Source of the DNA: an uncultured Candidatus Saccharibacteria bacterium
GTDB taxonomy: Bacteria; Patescibacteriota; Minisyncoccia; HO2-45-28
Assembly: GCA_964574495.1 (NCBI GenBank)
Contig: CAZNNT010000001.1
Coordinates: 5,194-69,193 of the forward strand
Direction of reading: 5' to 3'
DNA length: 64,000 nucleotides
Both the position numbers and the translations under genes were made by a program. The notes under the pieces are model-generated. The model saw nothing but the letters and a program-made list of their open reading frames with translations, was not told the DNA's origin and made no database searches. Shown one piece after another: positions 878 to 12,922 of the stretch (positions are counted from its first letter, which is position 1; the number at the start of each line of letters is the position of its first letter).

Positions 878-2332
878 CTATCGTTTTGACCATCTGTGCT
901 TGGCCTTACTCACTCTGAAACGCGCATCGCCGAAAGGCGCCAAAATTATATTCGGAAGGGCCTTCACGCCTATGGAGCGATGGAGTTTTCTGTATTCCAT
1001 ATTCATACTGACAAGACCTTCAAAAACGCTTTGGCGTATTTTAAAAATAATAACGGGCGAGGGTTTTAGGCCTCTAGCAAGTTCAACTTCCACAAAAAGT
1101 TTCTGGTCGCGCCCGTTTCTGAAAAGACGAGTGTAGGCGATAAATTTCCCGGAAACGAATTTATAAACATCTTTTTTCTCAAGGCCGGATTTTATGTTTT
1201 CAGGAAAAATGTTTAAAGCGTAGAAAGTGGTGGCGACATCTGAACGCGAACCAAGAAAAATAAAAGGCCGTTTCCATTTGTCAAAGCCGAGTTGTTTAAC
1301 CCTGTCCGACACTCCGGCTTTCTTTAAAATCGCTCGCATCTCTTTATGGCTGACAATGCGTCCCGTGTCGTGAATATTATAACGCAAAAGCGGAATGCCC
1401 GCGCGAGCGCTGAACAGCAATTCCCCGCCGACCATTTCAAAAAAAACCTGTCCGGGATCATATTGCACTATGGTGGGAATAAATTCTTCAAAACCGAGTT
1501 TTTTGGCAAAGGTCTTGTTTTCGGAGGCCAATTTTCTTATAAAAATGCTCGCCGGCGTCTCGTGGCCGATTGCGGCCGCGTCCGCCGTGCCATAGATGCT
1601 CACCGAACCGCTAAAACCGTTGGAGTTGTTGGAGCCGTTTTTAATTCCCGCGATTTTATGCATTATTGAACGGTATTTTTCAGAAAAATTTTCTCCGGCA
1701 AAAAGCAGATTTAACCGCAGATTTTTTATGTTTATTTTTTGAACGAGCGCTTCCTCCAGAACATCCCTTAAAAGCGGCGGATAACCGGCGAGAATCGTGC
1801 GTTTAAAAGACGGCGCGAGGTCTCGCAGAATCATAACCGCGTCCTCTTTTTCGATTGAAGGAGTTATAACTGAAATGTTGTAGCCGCGCCTAGAGAGCCA
1901 CCTTACGGAAGCCATGGTGAAGGTTCCGGCAATCCAGGTGCCCATTGAAAAACAAATCACCACCAAAGTTCTTTCGTTCTTTTTAACGCCGAAAATATCC
2001 CTGAAAATTCTTTCGTGCTGACGGCCCCCGGCTTCCTCCTGCCAATCGCCTCTTGGCCAATAAAACGGCTTGCCGGAAGAACCTGAACTGGCCGAAATCA
2101 TAGGCGGTATTTGTCGCTTTGGGAACAAATCAAAAAAATCAAAAGCCCTTAAATAATTGACCTTGTCCATTGAGGGCACTTTGATAAAATCGGCGTATGA
2201 TTTTATATTCTTTGGGTTTATGCCGCGCTTTCGCAAAAAAAACCTATAAGCCGGCACGACGCGCGCCGACTCCTGAAAAAGTTTTAAGGCCTCTTTAAAG
2301 CCCTCCGGGTTATGCGGACTATTTGAATGCAT
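878..2332 (-). CDS. PaaK/CapK-like adenylate-forming enzyme (phenylacetate-CoA ligase family)
   Basis: 484-aa ORF with an SASSGSSGKPF AMP-binding-like P-loop and the typical PaaK/CapK/F390-synthetase length. CapK-type enzymes are common in capsule/glycan loci. Confidence 0.6.
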   Translation of the reverse strand: MHSNSPHNPEGFKEALKLFQESARVVPAYRFFLRKRGINPKNIKSYADFIKVPSMDKVNYLRAFDFFDLFPKRQIPPMISASSGSSGKPFYWPRGDWQEEAGGRQHERIFRDIFGVKKNERTLVVICFSMGTWIAGTFTMASVRWLSRRGYNISVITPSIEKEDAVMILRDLAPSFKRTILAGYPPLLRDVLEEALVQKINIKNLRLNLLFAGENFSEKYRSIMHKIAGIKNGSNNSNGFSGSVSIYGTADAAAIGHETPASIFIRKLASENKTFAKKLGFEEFIPTIVQYDPGQVFFEMVGGELLFSARAGIPLLRYNIHDTGRIVSHKEMRAILKKAGVSDRVKQLGFDKWKRPFIFLGSRSDVATTFYALNIFPENIKSGLEKKDVYKFVSGKFIAYTRLFRNGRDQKLFVEVELARGLKPSPVIIFKIRQSVFEGLVSMNMEYRKLHRSIGVKALPNIILAPFGDARFRVSKAKHRWSKR

Positions 2333-2364: not shown

Positions 2365-3090
2365 TCAAGGCGATAGAATGGTTTTGGCAAAATCCCAAAA
2401 TTCGGGATGGTTTTGCTTAGTTTTTAACCAAAACCACCATTCCGCGCCCCATAAATAATATTCGTCAAAACCGCTGGCTTTGGCGTAATCAATCGTGTTT
2501 TTGAAAAAATCCAAATCAAAATGTTTCAATTGCTCGTCAAGCGCTGTTTCGTAAAGTTGTTCGGGAAGCCACGGCTCGGCCGCGAGCTCTGAGACAATAA
2601 ATTTTTTCTCATGCTCTCCGGTAAGCCGTCTTATTATTTTTTCTTTAAGTCCGAAAAACTCCGGCGGCAGATGATATTCAATAAAGCCGAGCGTATCATT
2701 ATAAATCCTGCGATACATTGTCGTTCCGAAAATATCTCCGCGTTTAACCGCCCCAAACCACAATCCCAATTCGCCGCTATCCGTAATTAAGACCGGGTGA
2801 TTGGAATCCAGGGATTTGACCAGCGTTATTTCTTCATCCAGAAATTCTTTATCCAGCGGCGGACATTCGCCGAATTTTAAAAACGGCTCGTTTTCTACCT
2901 GCCAATATAAAAGCGCCGGATGATTTTTATAGCGATTTACGACGGCTTCGAGCCCATTAGGGCTCATGACATTCGGGCCAGCGCGGCAGTTTCCGGCCAA
3001 CAGCCAAAATAACCCGCGCGCCGGAGAACGCGGCTTCATCCATTTGATAATCCAAATTTTGAAAATCAAACTTGTCTTCCTCCCGTTCAA
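2365..3090 (-). CDS. Glycoside hydrolase catalytic TIM-barrel portion (GH42/GH5-like NEP acid/base motif), 3' portion of the frameshifted gene
   Basis: Contains NRYKNHPALLYWQVENEPF, a catalytic acid/base context. It overlaps the upstream ORF by 134 nt in another frame. The Met start is probably artefactual, and the true gene likely reads through with a frameshift near 2975-3000. Confidence 0.5.
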   Translation of the reverse strand: MNGRKTSLIFKIWIIKWMKPRSPARGLFWLLAGNCRAGPNVMSPNGLEAVVNRYKNHPALLYWQVENEPFLKFGECPPLDKEFLDEEITLVKSLDSNHPVLITDSGELGLWFGAVKRGDIFGTTMYRRIYNDTLGFIEYHLPPEFFGLKEKIIRRLTGEHEKKFIVSELAAEPWLPEQLYETALDEQLKHFDLDFFKNTIDYAKASGFDEYYLWGAEWWFWLKTKQNHPEFWDFAKTILSP

Positions 3091-4213
3091 TCATGTCCCA
3101 ATAAGCGATGAGACGGATGCGCTTCGGCTTTAATTCTTTTATAATCGCGTCATAATTTTCGCGCCAATAAGCCCCCTCACCTACTTTGCCATCTTTTGAA
3201 TTTGCGCTTTGCGCCACGGCAAAGTAGGTGTGGGGGTCAGACCCGAGCTTTTCGGAAAATTTTTGCGAGAATGTAACGCCCCAGACAATCGAGCGGTTTT
3301 CATCCGACGCCCAGTTTACTCGCGTCCATGCGTCTGACTTGTAATATTCGCCGACGGCAAGCCATAAAACGCCGAAAGAAATAATCGCGAAAGCCGTTAT
3401 TTTTCCGGCCAGAATCCAGCCGGAAAACCGCTCGCGAAGTATCAGCCATCCGCCCAAAAAAACAAAAAGGTATTGGAGATTGCGTGTTGATTCAACCAGA
3501 GGCGGCAAACCGGTTGAAATTGCCGCGTAAATTAAAATGGACCCCAAACCGGCGTAAGCGCGGTTAAACAAATAAAGCCGCTTGTTTTTGAACTCGTCTC
3601 TGCCTTCCGGATGAAAAATCTTTTTTCTGAAAGCCGGCACGGCAAGAAAAATAAGCACCGTCAAAAACGAGGTGAACTTTATCCAAATAAGCCCGGAAAA
3701 AAAACCGGAAAAATCGAAAACCATTTTGGTAAGATTGCTCGCGAGCCCAAAACAAAAAGCGGCTATAACCGCAAGCATAATCACTTTTAACCGAACTCCT
3801 TTTTGTTCAATGAAAAATAATATCAGGCCGCCTAAGATTAAAATTATAAAACCGGCTAACTGGTAAAAGGTTAAATTGATGTCCAAAAGCGCGGAACTGA
3901 AAATCAAGGTGAATATCGGCGCCAAAGCCCAGATTAAAATTATTGAACTGGAGGCCTCGCCGTAAAAGAGGGCGGCAAAATAAAAAAATAGCGCGAGTAT
4001 TGAGACCGCACCGGTTAAAAAGGTAAAACCGAATTCGGAAAAATTAAACAATCTGAATCCGAAAGGCGCGAGAAAAACCGTAAAAACGCTCAAAATTCCT
4101 ATCCAAAAAGTATAGCCGATGGGATTGGGATAGGATTTTTTTAAAAGCAGTTTATCTATTACAGCCGAACTTCCGCTCACGAATTGCGAAGCCACCGCGA
4201 ATAAAAACCACAT
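2957..4213 (-). CDS. EamA/DMT-like 10-TM membrane domain fused to the N-terminal part of a glycoside hydrolase (5' portion of a frameshifted gene)
   Basis: Residues 1-290 are polytopic helices with an SSAVIDKLLL motif typical of EamA. The C-terminal 120 aa (YWDMIEREEDKFDFQNLDYQMDEAAFSGARVILAVG) resemble the N-terminus of a TIM-barrel GH. The ORF stops at 2957 inside what should be a continuous GH domain. Confidence 0.55.
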   Translation of the reverse strand: MWFLFAVASQFVSGSSAVIDKLLLKKSYPNPIGYTFWIGILSVFTVFLAPFGFRLFNFSEFGFTFLTGAVSILALFFYFAALFYGEASSSIILIWALAPIFTLIFSSALLDINLTFYQLAGFIILILGGLILFFIEQKGVRLKVIMLAVIAAFCFGLASNLTKMVFDFSGFFSGLIWIKFTSFLTVLIFLAVPAFRKKIFHPEGRDEFKNKRLYLFNRAYAGLGSILIYAAISTGLPPLVESTRNLQYLFVFLGGWLILRERFSGWILAGKITAFAIISFGVLWLAVGEYYKSDAWTRVNWASDENRSIVWGVTFSQKFSEKLGSDPHTYFAVAQSANSKDGKVGEGAYWRENYDAIIKELKPKRIRLIAYWDMIEREEDKFDFQNLDYQMDEAAFSGARVILAVGRKLPRWPECHEP

Positions 4214-4270
4214 AGATTAATTATAAAGCAAACTAACGCAAAGGCATTAAATGAACCATTGCCCGATTAA

Positions 4271-4299
4271 CTTGACTTTTTATTTATAAGGTGCTATAA
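4271..4299 (+). promoter_or_regulatory. Consensus sigma70-type promoter (TTGACT-17 bp-TATAAT)
   Basis: TTGACT at 4271-4276, a 17-bp spacer and TATAAT at 4294-4299, about 95 nt upstream of the 4396 start codon. Confidence 0.6.
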
Positions 4300-4395
4300 T
4301 TAAAAAGTAGTATTAAGTACCTTTCTAAAAAAGTGCCCTTGGAGCTTCGCTGTTCTTGGGGCAGATGTAAAATCCACAAAAAAAGGAGGTGTGTC

Positions 4396-4575
4396 ATGTT
4401 CAGGAATATAGAGAGGGAAGTTTGGGGTTACTGCGTGGCCGTTATCGGGGCTTTCGTGGCCGACTTCTTCTTCTGGTACCAGATATATGCCTACATCGGG
4501 TTCGTCGTGTTCATTTTGGGCTTGACGATGATGTTCGGCCCACCCGAGATCTTCAAGGTCTTCAGGAGAAAATGA
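4396..4575 (+). CDS. Small two-TM membrane protein (59 aa), unknown function
   Basis: ATG at 4396 is preceded by AAAGGAGGTGTGTC, a strong SD with a 7-nt spacer. The product is hydrophobic (VWGYCVAVIGAFVADFFFWYQIYAYIGFVVFILGLTMMFG). The ORF appears more GC-rich than its AT-rich surroundings and is followed by a strong terminator. The track's 80-aa version starts upstream without an SD. Confidence 0.6.
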   Translation: MFRNIEREVWGYCVAVIGAFVADFFFWYQIYAYIGFVVFILGLTMMFGPPEIFKVFRRK

Positions 4576-4617
4576 CAACTGTCCGTATGGCCACAAGCCG
4601 GCCGGACGGAAACAAGC

Positions 4618-4667
4618 GGGGGAATCCGTCCAATCCGGATTCCCTCTTTTTTATTTTTTTTTATTTT
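4618..4667 (+). terminator. Rho-independent terminator
   Basis: Stem GGGGGAATCCG/CGGATTCCCTC with a 7-nt loop, followed by CTTTTTTATTTTTTTTTATTTT. Confidence 0.75.
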
Positions 4668-4779
4668 CTTCACGCAAAGGATTCGCCTTTGCAAGTACTA
4701 TCCTCCCCAAATCCCACGATCGTGGAAATTAGAAAGGATGAAAAACTTTGCAAAATTACAAAATGGTTATTAATTTCAA

Positions 4780-5343
4780 TCAAAAAATAATAATGCTAAC
4801 CACCGTAAAATAAACAAGCAGACTTATTAAATCCTGAATAATGGTCGCCACGGGCCCCGAGCCCAAAGCCGGATCAGAATGTCTTTTGTATAAGAAGCTT
4901 GGAATAATCACGGCTAAAATCGGAGCCAGCGAAAGATTGATCAAAAAGGTCAGTCCTATGACAAATCCAATCGCGGAGGACTTAAGCCAATACGCGGCAA
5001 AAACCGCTAAAATCAAGCCGAAAATAACGCCGAGTCCGACGCCGACTACGCTTTCTTTAAAAATGTAAGTCCAGAAACGGGTTTTTTTGAACGTAAGCGC
5101 CCGCACATAAATAGTTTCGGTCTGCGTGCCCACGGCATCGCTTAGATACACGATAATCGGAATAAAAAAAGCGAGCCTTACATCGGCCGAAAGAATAGCT
5201 TCGTATTTAGAAATAATCAGTGTGGCAAGAATTCCGCCCAAAAGCCCGACAAAAAGCCACGGAACACGGCGTTCAATCAAATGCTCTACGGATTCTTTGG
5301 CGTCGTCTTCGGCCACATACTCTTTTTTTGGCTGTATCTCCAT
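4780..5343 (-). CDS. MgtE-like divalent cation transporter membrane domain protein (stand-alone TM domain)
   Basis: Five TM helices; C-terminal DPALGSGPVATIIQDLISLLVYF matches the MgtE/SLC41 signature (D-P-A-x-x-x-P-x-x-T-x-x-x-D). No N-terminal CBS or MgtE_N domain is present. Confidence 0.55.
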   Translation of the reverse strand: MEIQPKKEYVAEDDAKESVEHLIERRVPWLFVGLLGGILATLIISKYEAILSADVRLAFFIPIIVYLSDAVGTQTETIYVRALTFKKTRFWTYIFKESVVGVGLGVIFGLILAVFAAYWLKSSAIGFVIGLTFLINLSLAPILAVIIPSFLYKRHSDPALGSGPVATIIQDLISLLVYFTVVSIIIF

Positions 5344-5416
5344 ACGTTAAATATACCATATTCAATTTATTTTTATTTTAATACTTTGATGCCCCTCGGG
5401 CTGCGAATTTATATTT

Positions 5417-5959
5417 CTATAATACATACTCCCAGCCTGGTTTCCAGGATTTTGTTTTTCGCCAATCTTCGGCGAACGCCTCATCCCATGTTTTATTTTT
5501 AAGCAAAACTTCAAGGGCGAGCTGCGGGGCTTTATGCGAAACTAAGGCGACGCTTTTGCCGTCGTAATTTTGTTTTAAAAATTCAAGAAAATCGGCAACA
5601 CGCGTTTTTACATCCTCGTAGCTTTCGCCGTCGGGAAATTTTTCGGTTATCATTTTTTCTTGCATCGGCTCGACAATTTCAGACGAGTGGCCGTTAAACT
5701 TGCCGTAATTGCACTCGCGCAATCTTTGGTCGGGGATAATTGGTGCCACTCCTTCAAAAACTAGTTTTGCGGAGTCAACTGCCCGTCTCAAGTCGGAGCA
5801 AAAGACAACATCAAATTTTTTGTCTTTGATTTGGTCTTTTAGTTCAATAGATTGTTTTACACCAAGCTCCGAAAGCCCGACGTCAGACCACCCGGACGAG
5901 ATTCCTTTCTCGTTATCCTTAGTCGTTCCATGTACGAAATAAGTTATTTTGATTGGCAT
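5417..5959 (-). CDS. Histidine phosphatase family protein (phosphoglycerate mutase-like)
   Basis: The N-terminus (ITYFVHGTTKDN) carries the HG catalytic histidine motif variant of PGAM-like phosphatases. Length is 180 aa. Confidence 0.55.
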   Translation of the reverse strand: MPIKITYFVHGTTKDNEKGISSGWSDVGLSELGVKQSIELKDQIKDKKFDVVFCSDLRRAVDSAKLVFEGVAPIIPDQRLRECNYGKFNGHSSEIVEPMQEKMITEKFPDGESYEDVKTRVADFLEFLKQNYDGKSVALVSHKAPQLALEVLLKNKTWDEAFAEDWRKTKSWKPGWEYVL

Positions 5960-6396
5960 TATTTATTAAACTCAATATATTCTTTAACCCCCCTCAGCCA
6001 GCCTCCTTTGAAAAATTTTTCGGGTTTAAAATTGTTTGGGTCAACCCAAAGCAATTCCGAGTGTCTTTCCGAAGTTTTGACTTCGCCACTTTTCAATTCA
6101 CTCTCATAACCGATGGCAAATATTCTAACGGTGGGATTGCCCGGCGCATGTTCGACTCTTTCATGCCTCATAAAAATGATCGGCTCGCCGATGGTGTATT
6201 TGATGTCTTTACCCAGCTCCTCCGTCATTTTGCGTTCGATAATTTCATCCAAAGGTGTTTCGAACTCGTCTTTTTTGATTCGTCCTCCGGGCAAATCCCA
6301 GTCGCCAAAGCTATCTTTAAGTATTAAAAGTTTGCCGTCTTTTTTCAAAAAAACTTTTACCGCCACAAAATATTTTTCTTTTTCTTCTGTATCCAT
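5959..6396 (-). CDS. NUDIX hydrolase
   Basis: LPGGRIKKDEFETPLDEIIERKMTEELG is a Nudix-box-like segment (LPGG...E...ER..TEELG). Confidence 0.75.
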   Translation of the reverse strand: MDTEEKEKYFVAVKVFLKKDGKLLILKDSFGDWDLPGGRIKKDEFETPLDEIIERKMTEELGKDIKYTIGEPIIFMRHERVEHAPGNPTVRIFAIGYESELKSGEVKTSERHSELLWVDPNNFKPEKFFKGGWLRGVKEYIEFNK

Positions 6397-6407
6397 GTTC
6401 CGAAAAA

Positions 6408-6977
6408 TTACTTTGATAAATCCTCAATGGTTTGGATCACCTCGGGAAGTTCTAGACAGGGTTTTTCGCCTTCAATCGCGCCGGAAAAATGGCCCATTTT
6501 GTGTTTGATTATGACTTCCGCGCCGAGTTTTTCCTTAAAAATACCAGCATATTTCAGGTCAACATGCGGGTCGTTGTCGGAATGGATCGCCACAAAGCCG
6601 TTTTTTGATTTTGATTTGATATTTACAAAATCAATCGGCGTCTCAAAAAAGTTTTTGATTTCGTCATAACCCAAATCCTCGGTAAATCCGGCGACAAAGA
6701 CCACGCCGCCCACTCTTTGATTTTTCTGCAAAGTTTCCAAATAGCGCATTATTGTAACGCACCCGACGCTATGACCTATGAGAAATAGGTTTTCGTCAGG
6801 TTGCCCTATTTTTTCGGAAAGGAATGGAACCCACGCGTTTTGCTTAGGATGTTCGGTGTCGGGGAACGCCGGAATTTTCACTTCAAATCCTTTGGATTCA
6901 AGTTCTTTTTTCACTGACGGATACCAGCAATAGTCTGGCGCCCCCTCCCAACAATGGACTATGATTGCTCTTTTCAT
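6408..6977 (-). CDS. Alpha/beta-hydrolase fold serine hydrolase (RBBP9/YdeN-like esterase)
   Basis: GHSVG nucleophile elbow; 189 aa with a compact alpha/beta hydrolase layout and downstream Asp/His candidates (HSDNDPHV, HKMGHF). Confidence 0.6.
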   Translation of the reverse strand: MKRAIIVHCWEGAPDYCWYPSVKKELESKGFEVKIPAFPDTEHPKQNAWVPFLSEKIGQPDENLFLIGHSVGCVTIMRYLETLQKNQRVGGVVFVAGFTEDLGYDEIKNFFETPIDFVNIKSKSKNGFVAIHSDNDPHVDLKYAGIFKEKLGAEVIIKHKMGHFSGAIEGEKPCLELPEVIQTIEDLSK

Positions 6978-7098
6978 ATCCCTATTATGCTACGCAGCAT
7001 ATTACGCAGCAAGGTTTTACCGGGCGGTTTTGTTTAAATCGTTGGTGTAAAATAAATTATTTTTTCTTCACGCAAAGGTTTCGCCTTTACCTACGCCT

Positions 7099-7824
7099 TT
7101 ACTTAAAAAGCAAGACGGCGCCTAGAGCGGCGGCGTAGTTGCCGAGGCGAGATTTTAGAACCGGCGCCGGGATGCCGTTTTTGAAAAACTCCTTTTTTAA
7201 TTTTGAGACGAAATTTTTCCTTTTCATTATTACTCCCCCGCCGATGATTATTGCCCGCGGTTTATATGGCTTGATGAGTTTTGCCAAATTCTTGCCTAAA
7301 AATTCGGCGAGTTTCGTATCGTCTTTTTTATCTCTAATTTTTTGATACTCACCCTCCCAACGCTCCGGATATTCAAATTTTTTGATTTTTAAAATTTTTC
7401 CCTTTCTGCCGGAGGCCCGGCCGATTCCCGTGCCAATAGTCAAAAAAAACGCGTTTTTAAAACCTTTTCCGGCTCCAAGCAAATATTCCCCTCTGGCAAA
7501 ACAGCGCGCGTCGTTATCAAGTTTTAATTGAACTCCCGTCGGGATTATTTTTTGAAAATTAAAATTTTTAACCGCGGGAATATTGGGACTAAAACGCAAA
7601 ACCGCGCCACTAACCACTCCGGCTGTCCCGATGCCGATGCCCGATATTTTTTTGACGCGAAAAAAACCGCCAATAAGTCCTTTAAGTTTATTTTCAAAAC
7701 CGGCGCGGGTTTGAGGGGTCTTTATTTCGCGATTTTGCAAAATTTTTTTCTTATTCCACAAAATCCCCCGAATATTCGTCCCGCCTATATCTATGCCGAT
7801 GATATTTTTCAATTTATTGGTCAT
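7099..7824 (-). CDS. ROK-family sugar kinase (glucokinase/N-acetylglucosamine kinase-like)
   Basis: IGIDIGGTNIRG ATP-binding motif and LDNDARCFARGE. The chosen start is the Met of MTNKLKNIIGIDIGG. The 35 codons upstream in the track ORF translate the tRNA-like element and are probably not coding. Confidence 0.7.
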   Translation of the reverse strand: MTNKLKNIIGIDIGGTNIRGILWNKKKILQNREIKTPQTRAGFENKLKGLIGGFFRVKKISGIGIGTAGVVSGAVLRFSPNIPAVKNFNFQKIIPTGVQLKLDNDARCFARGEYLLGAGKGFKNAFFLTIGTGIGRASGRKGKILKIKKFEYPERWEGEYQKIRDKKDDTKLAEFLGKNLAKLIKPYKPRAIIIGGGVIMKRKNFVSKLKKEFFKNGIPAPVLKSRLGNYAAALGAVLLFK

Positions 7825-7825
7825 T

Positions 7826-7935
7826 TGGCTGCCGGGCTTGGATTCGAACCCCCGCCATAGCGGGACAAGCAAGATGCTCGCCTCTTCATCCCGCCAGAGG
7901 CGGGACAAGAAGGGCGATGTCCTATTCACCCCGCC
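7826..7935 (-). other. Degenerate tRNA-like element / tandem 39-40-nt CCCGCCA-initiated repeats derived from tRNA-Gln
   Basis: Shares GGATTCGAACC (T-loop) and AGGGCGATGTCCTA (anticodon stem region) with the adjacent tRNA-Gln and ends with CCA on the minus strand. It lacks a D-arm and a pairing T-stem. Three direct CCCGCCA repeats begin at 7851, 7890 and 7930. Confidence 0.4.
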
Positions 7936-10686: not shown

Positions 10687-12072
10687 CTAGGGAGCCGGAA
10701 CCATCCCCTGAAGCCAAAATGGAGCATTTTGGTCAATTGGCGCAGGAGTTGGCGGAGGTGTATAGACATTAGCCGAACCCGGGGTAGCCGGAGTCAGTTG
10801 CAACCAGAATGGAACCGGCGCAGGAGCGGCTGGAGCCGGGGTTGGAGCGGGAGTTACGGCGGGCGCTGGCGTTACTTCCGGTGTTACGGCCGGAGTTACT
10901 GGAGCGGCTGGAACCGCCGCGGCTCCAAACACTTCAGCCAGTTTCGCTCTTGTTTTCGGCCCGACAAATCCGTATCCGGCATCGCCTGCTTTGGCTACGC
11001 CATATTTAACCTGGAATTTTTCAACGGCGCGGGTTGTAAGAGAGCCGAAAAATTCTGTTTCATTTCCTGCTGAACCCACACCAGATGAAGCAATCGCCGT
11101 ATCGGCATCGGAGTTAAGCAATTGCTGGATACGCTTAACATCTTCTCCTTTTGAACCAATCGTGAGAGCGCGGTTAAAGACAGGGCTGACCGCGGCAGCG
11201 ACCGGCGAGGGTGCGGCCGGCACTACCGGCAACTCTGGAGCCGCCGGAGCCGCGGCCTCTGCAAACACTTCAGCCAGTTTCGCTCTGGTTTTCGGCCCGA
11301 CAAGTCCGTATCCGGCATCGCCTGCTTGAGCTACGCCATATTTAACCTGGAATTTTTGGACGGCTTTTTCAGAAAGCGAACCGAAGAATTCGGTTTCATT
11401 TCCTGGAGAACCAACGCCTGACGCCGCAATTACGGTGTCAGAATCAGAGTTTAACAACTGTTGAAGGCGCTTAACGTCTTCACCTTTAGAACCGATGGTT
11501 AAAGCCCTATTAAAAGCTGGGCTTACAGCCAATGCCTGGGCTGATGGCTGGGCCGCTGACGACGGAACCGCGGGTGTAGCCGGCGTTACGGTCGGTACTG
11601 CGGGTACAGCCGCAACTGCTGCGGTCTGCGAGGGAATGCTCGGCGCGCTACTTCCTCCGCCACCCCCTCCTCCGCCACCGCCTCCTCCGCCACCGCCTCC
11701 GGCAGCGCAGGTATCAGCTGAAACACTTATAGTGGAAGTTCCGAAAGGCGCGTTAGTCGGGTTGGTAACAGTTATTTTTGAACTACTGGTGGTGCAGGAA
11801 AACCCGGCCGTAATTGACCCGACTACCGTGGCGGTCAGTTTTCTGCGATTAGTTGAAGTAACTTCATAGCTTGCCCCCGGCGACATACCGACATCAAAAG
11901 AAGTGGAATTCACATCAATGTAATCGGCGTTAAAACCCGTGCCCGTAACATTTAAAGTTACGCTATTAACATCTAGATCAACATTAGTGTCAAAAGTAAA
12001 GTCGCCCAAAGCGGCCAACGCGAACATCGGTATAAAGCTGGCAGTTAAAATCGTTAGATAGATTTTTTTCAT
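10687..12072 (-). CDS. Secreted low-complexity protein with two peptidoglycan-binding-like (PG_binding_1-type) repeats and a 16-residue poly-Gly tract
   Basis: N-terminal signal/anchor (MKKIYLTILTASFIPMFALAA). Two ~115-aa repeats contain FNRALTIGSKGEDVKR(L/I)QQLLNSD ... KFQVKYGVA(Q/K)AGDAGYG(L/F)VGPKTRAKLAEVF. Pro/Ala-rich linkers and a G16 stretch are present. Confidence 0.6.
   Translation of the reverse strand: MKKIYLTILTASFIPMFALAALGDFTFDTNVDLDVNSVTLNVTGTGFNADYIDVNSTSFDVGMSPGASYEVTSTNRRKLTATVVGSITAGFSCTTSSSKITVTNPTNAPFGTSTISVSADTCAAGGGGGGGGGGGGGGGGSSAPSIPSQTAAVAAVPAVPTVTPATPAVPSSAAQPSAQALAVSPAFNRALTIGSKGEDVKRLQQLLNSDSDTVIAASGVGSPGNETEFFGSLSEKAVQKFQVKYGVAQAGDAGYGLVGPKTRAKLAEVFAEAAAPAAPELPVVPAAPSPVAAAVSPVFNRALTIGSKGEDVKRIQQLLNSDADTAIASSGVGSAGNETEFFGSLTTRAVEKFQVKYGVAKAGDAGYGFVGPKTRAKLAEVFGAAAVPAAPVTPAVTPEVTPAPAVTPAPTPAPAAPAPVPFWLQLTPATPGSANVYTPPPTPAPIDQNAPFWLQGMVPAP
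10920..11600. repeat. Two tandem ~345-bp intragenic repeats encoding the PG-binding-like modules
   Basis: A near-identical DNA segment (cttcagccagtttcgctct.gttttcggcccgacaa.tccgtatccggcatcgcctgct...) occurs at about 10935-11040 and 11270-11375, with flanking similarity. Confidence 0.6.
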
Positions 12073-12106
12073 GGGCGATAATTTAGTTTTTAATTAAACC
12101 GCTAAA

Positions 12107-12922
12107 TTATCGCGTTGCCCAAAAGTTAAGAGTGCCCCGTGGAGTAAAGGCGGCGCCGGCAAGATTGGTCAATTCAACTCCAATGGTTGCCGAACCCGTG
12201 GATGAAGCGCTGGCAATTACCATACCTACGTTATTAGGAGTGGCAGCTACAATCAGCGAGCTTGTCGCCTGAACAAAAACTCGGGTAAAGCTTGTAGTTA
12301 TTCCCGTGGCGCCAGAGCAAATAATGCCTGTTGTTGTGGTTGCAGGTATAGAAATCTGCGCGAGGTTGCAAGTTCCGAAAACCATACTTGTCAAAGCGGT
12401 TCCATCGCCAACCGTTAAAGTACCTTTCGTCGCAAAGTCGCCGTTTGAGCCGGTTGTGGTCGCAAAGCCGTTAACATATAAATTTTTGCCGACCTCAAAC
12501 TCATTCGTTGTGGAAGCGTTGCCGGTGATGATAATGTTGTCAACCGCGGCATTGCCCAAAGTGACATTGCCGTTAAGATTTGAGGCTCCGGTCACAGTCA
12601 AAGTGCCCGCAGTCTCAAAATTTCCGTTCGCGCCTGTTGTAGTGGCAAAACCGTTAACATAAAAGTTGCTGCCGACCTCAAATTCATTCGTTGTTGAAGC
12701 GTTGCCGGTGATGATAATGTTATCAGCCGCGGCATCGCCCAAAGTTACATTGCCATTTAAAGTCGTGGCTCCGGAAGCCGTAAGCGTCCCGCCCGTGTTA
12801 ACGTTTGAACCAATAGTGGTTACGCCGTAAGTGGTGAGAGCAACCAGTAAAAACGACAAAATTGTCGCCGCAATTATGCCGCTGACCTGACGAGTATCTA
12901 AAAAACTTGAAACCTTTTGCAT
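12107..12922 (-). CDS. Cell-surface tandem-repeat protein (Thr/Gly/Asn-rich, beta-helix/adhesin-like) with an N-terminal membrane anchor
   Basis: N-terminal hydrophobic anchor IIAATILSFLLVALTTYG, then two ~61-aa tandem repeats (TLT..GA..LNGNVTLG.AA.DNIIITGNASTTNEFEVG.N.YVNGFATTTG.NG.F.T.G). Confidence 0.55.
   Translation of the reverse strand: MQKVSSFLDTRQVSGIIAATILSFLLVALTTYGVTTIGSNVNTGGTLTASGATTLNGNVTLGDAAADNIIITGNASTTNEFEVGSNFYVNGFATTTGANGNFETAGTLTVTGASNLNGNVTLGNAAVDNIIITGNASTTNEFEVGKNLYVNGFATTTGSNGDFATKGTLTVGDGTALTSMVFGTCNLAQISIPATTTTGIICSGATGITTSFTRVFVQATSSLIVAATPNNVGMVIASASSTGSATIGVELTNLAGAAFTPRGTLNFWATR
12440..12805. repeat. Two tandem ~183-bp intragenic repeats
   Basis: Near-identical DNA copies (ccgttaacata.aa.tt..tgccgacctcaaa.tcattcgttgt.gaagcgttgccggtgatgataatgtt...) encode the repeated protein module. 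Confidence 0.6.

Follow-up and report, generated by a model that had tools for sequence, protein, structure and literature searches.

A DMT-glycoside hydrolase fusion gene interrupted by a premature stop codon and a 47-nt deletion, a candidate pseudogene of a Patescibacteria-wide family

The nearest structural neighbors of the membrane domain analyzed here are the DMT proteins LicB (7b0k), TPT (5y78), YddG (5i20), and the nucleotide-sugar transporters, which share only 11–15% identity with it and lack the C-terminal glycosidase that the DMT domain of this family carries. The glycosidase is related to clan GH-A (GH42/GH35 β-galactosidases, GH5, GH10, and the GH39-like PslG) at 10–18% identity, and no family stands out. 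We found no specific description of the DMT-GH fusion or module in the literature; Danczak et al. 2017 (PMC5581439) list only the GH families of each CPR phylum, and the family itself is annotated only as “EamA/DMT family transporter.” The same fused DMT and GH-A architecture is present in QQG46404.1 (“MAG: EamA family transporter,” 634 aa), an intact ortholog from Candidatus Niyogibacteria bacterium CP066691.1 that served as the reference for the lesions reported below. A different kind of described system that bears on this locus is the +1 shifty stop. CCC_UAA has been described as such a site, and CCC_UGA is especially prone to +1 shifts, although alone it generally gives ≤2% frameshifting (PMC3082878). 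Known examples are CCC_UGA in pheL, antizyme, and Listeria phage tail genes and CCC_UAA in Lactobacillus phage Q54 and Bacillus phage SPP1.

The original prediction for this locus regarded a transporter-like domain fused to a GH as an unusual architecture. Our searches contradict this, as the DMT-GH architecture is common and ordinary in Patescibacteria, where few conserved gene pairs or fusions are commoner. The query matched more than 1,499 protein clusters (nearly all of the best 120 listed are fused proteins of ∼600 aa), and the EamA/GH pair was found in at least 589 stretches from species-representative genomes, which with few exceptions are titled Patescibacteria. The two domains are fused in 18 of 78 loci, and in most of the other 60 neighboring genes encode them separately, with the split at the domain boundary. 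Adjacent EamA and GH genes are in the same frame in 46 of 54 pairs. Stop-codon read-through was rejected as an explanation for this excess because loci were ranked by tblastn, which favors same-frame pairs, because the stops are mostly TAA, and because a start and an anchor of their own are present in the GH genes.

The AF2 model of the intact ortholog has a pLDDT of 91 (above 90 across the barrel) and contains a 10-TM fold of two 5-TM repeats, as expected for a DMT/EamA domain (EamA score, 45 bits), and a (β/α)8 barrel with fold matches. Loops 1, 5, 7, and 9 of the membrane domain are rich in Lys and Arg, which places the GH domain outside. The intact protein (∼600–634 aa) is predicted from such models to combine an N-out/C-out 10-helix membrane domain with an extracytoplasmic retaining clan GH-A glycosidase. 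Family assignment of the barrel is less direct: the ortholog scores 38.4 bits against GH42 over only profile positions 31–140 of 376, it also matches GH2_C and GH10, and the best PDB profile matches are to GH5 and GH10, with E values of ∼1e-6 or weaker. Judged by these comparisons, the GH part looks like a separate, uncharacterized GH-A lineage tethered to the DMT domain.

The copy of this gene studied here is on the minus strand of a 64,000-nt stretch of DNA, the whole of which we call the window. It is covered by two overlapping ORFs. ORF1 (4213..2957, 418 aa) encodes the DMT/EamA domain, a linker, and barrel elements β1–β3 and ends at a premature TAA; ORF2 (3090..2365) encodes 241 aa from a TTG start. 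ORF1 aligns with residues 1–418 of QQG46404.1, with the 10-TM DMT/EamA-fold membrane domain at 3338..4213 (residues 1 to ∼292) and, at 2960..3299, the linker together with the N-terminal third of the barrel (β1–β3 by the secondary structure of the AF2 model, ending in RWPECHEP). The remaining barrel, from a truncated α3 to α8, is encoded in the +1 frame at 2365..2951 (stop codon, 2365–2367) and is 94.8% identical to residues 437–630 of QQG46404.1 by tblastn. In Pfam, ORF1 gave an EamA match (PF00892, 44.6 bits; cut-off, 28.2) and a weak match to the start of GH42, and ORF2 matched the GH2 TIM barrel (GH2_C, 23.2 bits versus a cut-off of 21) and, weakly, GH42; the GH42 scores of the two halves were 18.9 and 16.9 bits (cut-off, 21). 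These data agree with the original prediction that overlapping ORFs share 134 nt (2957..3090 in the ORF list), that the first carries an EamA-type membrane domain and the start of a barrel before stopping at 2957, and that the two are parts of one gene with a broken reading frame. That gene encodes a 10-TM DMT/EamA domain and a clan GH-A barrel.

The source assembly annotates two genes here on the same 97,933-bp NCBI contig, encoding 407 and 200 aa, the latter beginning at ATG 2967. A TATAAT (4220..4225, minus strand), which resembles a −10 box and is shared with the CP066691.1 locus, lies 6 nt upstream of the ATG at 4213; the promoter scan left it uncalled because a −35 box is absent. By tblastn, neither a second copy of the gene nor an intact paralog was found within the window.

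Both members of the Glu pair of clan GH-A retaining glycosidases (after β4 and after β7) are encoded in ORF2. As was also predicted, this frame holds the ENEP motif, as VENEP at 2898..2884. The codon of the predicted acid/base Glu is at 2887..2889 (minus strand, NEP motif, end of β4), and E-N-E is invariant across 118 homologs; that of the predicted nucleophile is at 2587..2589 (minus strand, SELAAEPW, end of β7) and corresponds to E558 of QQG46404.1, also invariant across the 118. Only two cysteines are invariant in the family, and the break places them on different ORFs, with Cys415 (2969..2971, minus strand, RWPECH) in ORF1 and its partner (2863–2865, minus strand, FGEC) in ORF2.

The nature and position of the break differ from what had been proposed, namely a single ±1 indel at 2975–3000, where both frames appeared to read sensibly. 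Alignment to the ortholog puts the break at 2948–2959. Homology identifies the ORF1 frame as the only real one as far as 2960, and ORF2 homology starts only from ∼2951; the 5′ extension of ORF2 (MNGRK...VMSP, ORF2 residues 1–44, at 2960..3090 on the minus strand) is spurious, lying out of frame over real ORF1 coding sequence, and tblastn found no homolog matching the ORF2 frame in 2960..3090. In a DNA alignment, window positions 3288..2585 (704 nt) are identical to CP066691.1 save for two lesions 8 nt apart. The first is a G-to-T change at 2959 that turns the GAA codon of Glu419 in the ortholog into the premature TAA (2957..2959, minus strand), so that the ORF1 stop codon is produced by a substitution and not by a frame change. 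Downstream of it, 47 nt (15 codons plus 2 nt) have been deleted, and the junction of this second lesion is at 2948..2951 (minus strand) with TCGA microhomology at both deletion edges; the ortholog carries TCGAGCTAAAAGCTCAAAGCTAAAAGCTCAAAGCTTGCTTAAATATA ahead of the second TCGA. This combination rules out a single ±1 frameshift. Measured against the intact ortholog, the locus thus has two disabling lesions, a nonsense change and a frame-shifting deletion.

The deletion takes out Trp420, which is conserved in 99% of homologs, and the first half of barrel helix α3. The spacing between P418 and R443 is 17–41 residues in the ortholog and the 118 homologs (24 in 99 of the 118) and ≤8 in the window; 16 residues including Trp420 are missing, and the window contains no continuous, complete catalytic barrel, its (β/α)8 fold being split over two frames. 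A break inside the barrel was seen in none of 80 species-representative loci, and a frame change at the lesion site in none of the 118 proteins or 80 loci.

Based on these results, the locus is probably a recently inactivated copy, that is, a pseudogene, of this Patescibacteria-wide gene. A single microhomology-mediated deletion between the TCGA copies, with error-prone fill-in, could have generated both changes. The GAA-to-TAA change at codon 419 and the deletion would together destroy the gene and leave the remaining two-thirds of the barrel out of frame; the ORF1 product would be a membrane protein with a barrel stump, and the ORF2 product has neither a signal peptide nor an anchor, so that no active enzyme is expected. 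The GH tract (3288..2585) has no substitutions beyond the two lesions, and this absence of further decay means that relaxed selection is not demonstrable and that inactivation would have to be very recent.

Pseudogene and sequencing error, both named in the original prediction, were the right candidate causes, whereas the single ±1 frameshift proposed with them is at odds with the DNA alignment. Under an artifact, the gene of the organism would be intact, with the gap and mismatch arising from a mis-joined or chimeric read path among co-occurring close strains. The locus comes from a contig of a metagenome-assembled genome that is represented once in databases, and the deleted stretch includes a 14-nt tandem repeat. 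Collapse of that repeat would, however, delete 14 nt rather than 47, and the gap is flanked by only 4 nt of microhomology, far below any assembler k-mer or overlap length. The two differences are packed within 12 nt, which favors an artifact, but the usual short- or long-read errors are substitutions or 1–2-nt homopolymer indels. Elsewhere, the window is clean coding sequence (92% under table 11) with no other obvious broken gene, which indicates that the assembly is not generally error-prone. One search pattern covering both the deleted and the intact junction found no match in genome and metagenome contigs, a window-specific 32-mer found none, and neither did exact-protein look-ups of ORF1 and ORF2; these searches turned up neither reads nor a second assembly of the allele.

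The relationship of the locus to CP066691.1 also bears on an artifact. The neighboring MgtE, His_Phos, NUDIX, and Ser_hydrolase genes are 96–97% identical between the two, and the genes adjoining the locus differ at 2.5–3.6%. Against this baseline of 96–97%, the locus is a mosaic, with 55–78% identity followed by 100% and then by divergent sequence, the 3′ gene end and flanking genes being different in CP066691.1. The membrane domain (3338..4213) is a deeply divergent allele, with only 63% protein identity to that of QQG46404.1 and a dS of ∼1.5. Such a pattern, in which an identical GH core follows a divergent TM domain and the 3′ ends are swapped, points to surface-gene recombination or strain-chimeric assembly. 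Overall, we regard an assembly or sequencing artifact as a real but unlikely alternative to a pseudogene.

We also considered that the TM domain had decayed as part of an old pseudogene. This was rejected, as the domain has a dN/dS of 0.18 and a saturated dS and retains most of the conserved columns (5 of 48 deviate; family mean, 2.0). By this sequence measure, the TM part still looks constrained, which counts against a simple pseudogene.

A second point against a simple pseudogene is the sequence around the premature stop, CCC_TAA_T at 2962..2956. Relative to ORF1, the ORF2 homology lies in the +1 frame here, and that the substitution made a +1 shifty stop with precisely the frame needed is an unlikely coincidence. 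The window has the same CCC_UAA hexanucleotide as known shifty stops, with the downstream ORF likewise in the +1 frame. If the G-to-T change followed the deletion and created CCC_UAA_U, peptidyl-tRNA-Pro could re-pair from CCC to CCU on some ribosomes, and the +1 slip at 2960–2962 would enter the homologous ORF2 frame exactly, giving a 615-aa DMT-GH protein (...ECHEP-NGLEAVVNRYK..., predicted junction peptide ...WPECHEPNGLEAVVNR) that is 16 residues short. Of the 2,112 single substitutions that the identical tract allows, only 4 would create an XXX_stop inside the overlap, and only 1 of ∼93 would do so within 15 nt of the junction. In addition, AF2 still models the joined sequence as a barrel (mean pLDDT, 88.9). 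Against such rescue, the joined protein lacks Trp420 and has 8 residues where the family has 17–41; pLDDT drops from 91 to 62 at the junction and is 59 in the loop after NEP that holds the partner Cys, versus 94 and 81 (two 10-residue blocks) in the intact model. Visual inspection of the 20 nt upstream revealed no Shine-Dalgarno-like stimulator, and the argument is post hoc. Unlike known +1 sites, CCC_UAA in the window is absent in homologs, none of which changes frame here, and lies beside a deletion of conserved structure. We therefore consider translational rescue improbable. The same long odds apply to a broader proposal, in which the G-to-T change was selected as a CCC_UAA suppressor of the deletion and, independently, the DMT and GH-A pair is an undescribed CPR-wide cleave-import module.

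The prevalence of split loci raises another alternative to a pseudogene, in which the cell would produce both ORF1 and the 200-aa ORF2 product and the two fragments would come together as a working barrel. In Patescibacteria, EamA and GH are most often encoded by separate genes, and termination-reinitiation would be feasible with ATG 2967 only 8 nt ahead of the TAA. Natural splits, however, fall at the domain boundary, ∼130 codons before the Met of ORF2, and in such loci an N-terminal TM anchor is part of the GH gene itself. In the window, the break separates β3 from α3, the same 16 residues are missing, the invariant Cys pair is divided between two chains, and ORF2 is without a signal peptide or anchor even though an extracytoplasmic position is predicted for its domain. 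A two-piece enzyme is accordingly very hard to credit. The position of natural splits also excludes a genuine GH start at the Met of ORF2, which had been put forward as an observation that would overturn the frameshift interpretation; no homolog starts there.

Where the family is intact, its gene context is consistent with a role in sugar use. Of the 18 fused loci, 16 encode a cytoplasmic GH1 β-glucosidase upstream, a GH1 gene lies within 6 kb in 41–43 of 80 loci, ROK is found in 11 of 80, and about one-quarter of loci have glycosyltransferase or DUF6938 neighbors in place of GH1. Judging from fold and neighbors, the outside barrel would cleave a β-linked glycan, the DMT domain would import or handle the cleavage product, and the neighbor-encoded GH1 β-glucosidase, often with a ROK kinase, would complete sugar processing. 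The DMT-GH module may therefore cleave sugars outside and then import them.

In itself, the broken locus matters little, being one broken gene in one metagenome-assembled genome; because the gene is very common in the ultra-small CPR/Patescibacteria and the break is a 47-base deletion plus a stop, the finding is largely ordinary. The CCC_UAA beside the deletion is a candidate case of an indel being corrected naturally during translation. If the rescue proposal were true, the cell would make a shortened but working DMT-tethered surface glycosidase, and the locus would be a natural “savior” frameshift site in a CPR bacterium; the accompanying proposal, which is independent of it, envisages a DMT and GH-A module usually found with GH1 and often with ROK. 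For the family, linkage with a GH1 β-glucosidase and a ROK kinase suggests a main sugar-scavenging route for these organisms of minimal metabolism.

Two overlapping reading frames on the minus strand, ORF1 (window 4213..2957, 418 aa) and ORF2 (3090..2365, 241 aa, TTG start), share 134 nt in the ORF listing. In Pfam, ORF1 scores 44.6 bits (cut-off 28.2) against EamA, the profile of a 10-TM transporter-like membrane domain, and has a weak match to the beginning of GH42. ORF2, which contains the VENEP motif, scores 23.2 bits (cut-off 21) against the GH2 TIM-barrel model and is likewise a weak match to GH42. The break is also present in the source contig as deposited (NCBI, 97,933 bp), on which two proteins are called, one of 407 aa (P0003) with 100% identity to ORF1 and one of 200 aa (P0123) that begins MSPNGLEAVV at window 2967, so the observation is real. 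The ORF listing, Pfam, and these two proteins confirm the original prediction of overlapping frames with EamA and GH halves. Homology is real in the ORF1 frame only down to 2960 and in the ORF2 frame only from ∼2951; on sequence grounds, the first 44 residues of ORF2 are a spurious extension. Only 6 nt separate a TATAAT (window 4220-4225, minus strand) from the downstream ATG at 4213; no Shine-Dalgarno sequence is present, and L001, the locus of an intact orthologue, has this TATAAT too. The arrangement suggests an mRNA that is leaderless or has a very short leader.

The closest relative is this orthologue, QQG46404.1 (P0001, 634 aa), annotated as an "EamA family transporter" in the complete Candidatus Niyogibacteria genome CP066691.1. 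When the DNA was aligned with L001, window 3288..2585 (704 nt) was identical except for two differences. One is a G->T substitution at 2959 (minus strand) that changes GAA (Glu419, P0001 numbering) to TAA and thereby produces the ORF1 stop codon. The other is a 47-nt deletion on the same strand (junction 2951..2948) that removes TCGAGCTAAAAGCTCAAAGCTAAAAGCTCAAAGCTTGCTTAAATATA and has TCGA at each edge; because 47 = 3x15+2, the sequence downstream is in the +1 frame. This pair of lesions replaces the single +/-1 frameshift originally proposed, which had also been misplaced at about 2975-3000. AF2 predicts the structure of the intact orthologue with a pLDDT of 91; there, the lost stretch (residues 419-437) comprises a short helix at 419-422 and the leading half of alpha3, the barrel helix at 426-444, just ahead of beta4, the strand that ends in the NEP acid/base motif. 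The P418-R443 spacer has 17-41 residues across 118 homologues (24 in 99 of them); even in a frame-corrected window product it would have only 8, and Trp420 (99% conserved) would be gone.

The segment of L001 that corresponds to the deletion includes a perfect 14-nt tandem repeat (11266-11293, two copies of AGCTAAAAGCTCAA, period 7 nt). The variable loop AKSSKLKAQS is encoded by this repeat, and a one-unit slip there would by itself shift the frame. Two copies of a 9-nt direct repeat, GCCCGAATG, lie just upstream.

At the predicted catalytic positions, E-N-E (456-458) and E558/E562 are invariant in the homologue alignment. Mean Lys+Arg counts are 2.9-5.5 in loops 1, 5, 7, and 9 versus 0.02-0.26 in loops 2, 4, 6, and 8, a pattern that by the positive-inside rule predicts an N-out/C-out topology with an extracytoplasmic GH barrel. 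The membrane-anchored GH genes of two-gene lineages agree with this location. Exactly two cysteines are invariant, Cys415 (RWPECH) and Cys466 (FGEC), consistent with an extracytoplasmic disulfide between them.

The G->T change yields CCC_TAA_T (window 2956-2962, minus strand), where a +1 slip from CCC to CCT would give ...ECHEP-NGLEAVVNRYK..., exactly the homologous frame. It is suggestive that a nonsense change makes a shifty stop of a documented type at which peptidyl-tRNA-Pro, by slipping +1 at CCC_UAA, would rejoin the GH frame. CCC_UGA is especially prone to +1 shifts, with frameshifting at CCC_UGA by itself generally <=2%, and CCC_UAA is used by some phages (PMC3082878). The identical tract allows 2,112 different single substitutions, of which only 4 would place an XXX_stop site where the two frames overlap. 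However, the argument from CCC_TAA_T is post hoc, and the joined protein would lack conserved structure: its AF2 confidence at the junction is 62, down from 91, and is 59 in the loop of the partner Cys, where two 10-residue blocks of the intact model have values of 94 and 81. We regard translational rescue as improbable. A functional two-piece enzyme made from ORF1 and ORF2 is also very unlikely, as the barrel itself is cut, ORF2 lacks an export signal, and the invariant cysteine pair would be separated.

The locus is a mosaic relative to L001, with sharp changes in identity along the gene. When window 2365-4213 was compared with L001 10001-12131, the GH core (3288..2585) matched apart from the two lesions, the last ∼60 nt of the gene (below 2427) were divergent, and the TM-coding part (4213..3289) had only 55-78% identity, with dS ∼1.5 and dN/dS 0.18; the neighbouring genes (window 4773-7018) have 96-97% identity. 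As judged from its sequence, the TM-coding part is a divergent allele that is old and under constraint. The encoded protein shares 62-65% identity with P0001 and with the further homologues P0002, P0004, and P0005, and these four are mutually 75-82% identical in the TM domain. L001 also holds a relic of the window-type 3' end (window 2375-2445), 71 nt with 90% identity at 12061-12131, beginning 156 nt past the L001 gene's own stop codon. The mosaic indicates repeated recombination at a surface-protein gene locus, or assembly chimerism.

A strain-chimeric assembly could thus lie behind this locus. Against an artefact, assemblers do not join a 4-nt overlap, and repeat collapse would be expected to remove 14 nt, the tandem-repeat length, not the 47 observed. 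The gene carries two disabling lesions, and a deletion with 4-nt flanking microhomology plus an adjacent substitution would fit microhomology-mediated repair. Coding density in the window is 92%, with no other obvious split gene. Exact-protein look-ups and genome and metagenome contigs yielded no second assembly of the deleted allele. We conclude that the window copy is probably a real, very recent inactivation, a pseudogene. The earlier reading of one interrupted gene, probably a pseudogene, therefore stands, but not its type or position of lesion, nor the rarity it ascribed to the architecture.

In the region separating MgtE from the EamA-GH gene, some 130 nt (window 4643-4772), terminator hairpin included, are 91-95% identical to two separate places in L001 (7822-7951 and 8904-8962). 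The two genomes also differ in gene order: the ROK gene is beside MgtE in L001 and past a Ser-hydrolase gene in the window. DNA without an L001 counterpart (window 4272-4646, plus strand) holds an apparent self-contained small gene. Its promoter is close to consensus (TTGACT-17-TATAAT and a TG upstream, 4272-4300), AAGGAGG precedes an ATG at 4396, the encoded protein of 59 aa (4396-4575) is hydrophobic and probably has two helices, and a strong hairpin terminator follows (4618-4646). Downstream, a 484-aa ORF (878-2332, minus strand) has no same-position counterpart in L001 and no Pfam match; its sole similarities, to phenylacetate-CoA ligase and F390 synthetase in NCBIfam, are weak (E 1e-9).

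A transporter-GH fusion had been considered unusual, yet EamA-GH relatives are widespread among Patescibacteria protein clusters and genomes. The joined query matched >1,499 protein clusters in a protein search, and the best 120 of these are nearly all ∼600 aa, with EamA and GH signatures, from Patescibacteria. Scanning a single genome for each species gave at least 589 stretches that encode a relative, nearly all titled Patescibacteria/CPR, with a few titles naming other taxa. Architecture was scored in 78 of 80 retained loci: EamA and GH form one ORF in 18, are two adjacent genes in 54 (EamA of ∼300 aa, then GH of ∼330 aa), and in 6 one part alone was recovered. The two-gene GH protein opens with a Lys/Arg-rich segment and a hydrophobic anchor of its own, after which comes WGVTFS. 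In none of the 80 loci is the barrel itself interrupted. The two genes are in the same frame in 46 of the 54 pairs; read-through was rejected as the cause of this excess, which is an ascertainment effect of the tblastn ranking of loci. The family is known and annotated but uncharacterised, and the window gene adds a damaged member to it.

In 41-43 of the 80 loci, a bona fide GH1 beta-glucosidase of the cytoplasm (Pfam GH1, 2.4e-83; NCBIfam BGL, 8e-94) is encoded within 6 kb, usually immediately upstream in the same orientation; 16 of the 18 fused loci have one. ROK-family kinases occur in 11 of 80, often directly downstream. The conserved order across these loci (L003-L087) is GH1, EamA, anchored GH-A, often then a ROK kinase. 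The ROK gene lies 2-3 kb from the EamA-GH gene in both the window (7099..7929) and L001; neither the 64-kb window nor the 22 kb of L001 contains a GH1 gene. A literature search found nothing describing an EamA plus GH-A module. Another subset of loci has an upstream DUF6938 protein (19/80) and a downstream GT2 glycosyltransferase (12/80), and the glycosyltransferase contexts suggest envelope-glycan handling as an alternative function. In the favoured model for the fused clade, the outward-facing barrel would cut a beta-linked glycan, the DMT domain would import the product, GH1 would hydrolyse it, and the ROK kinase would phosphorylate the resulting sugar.
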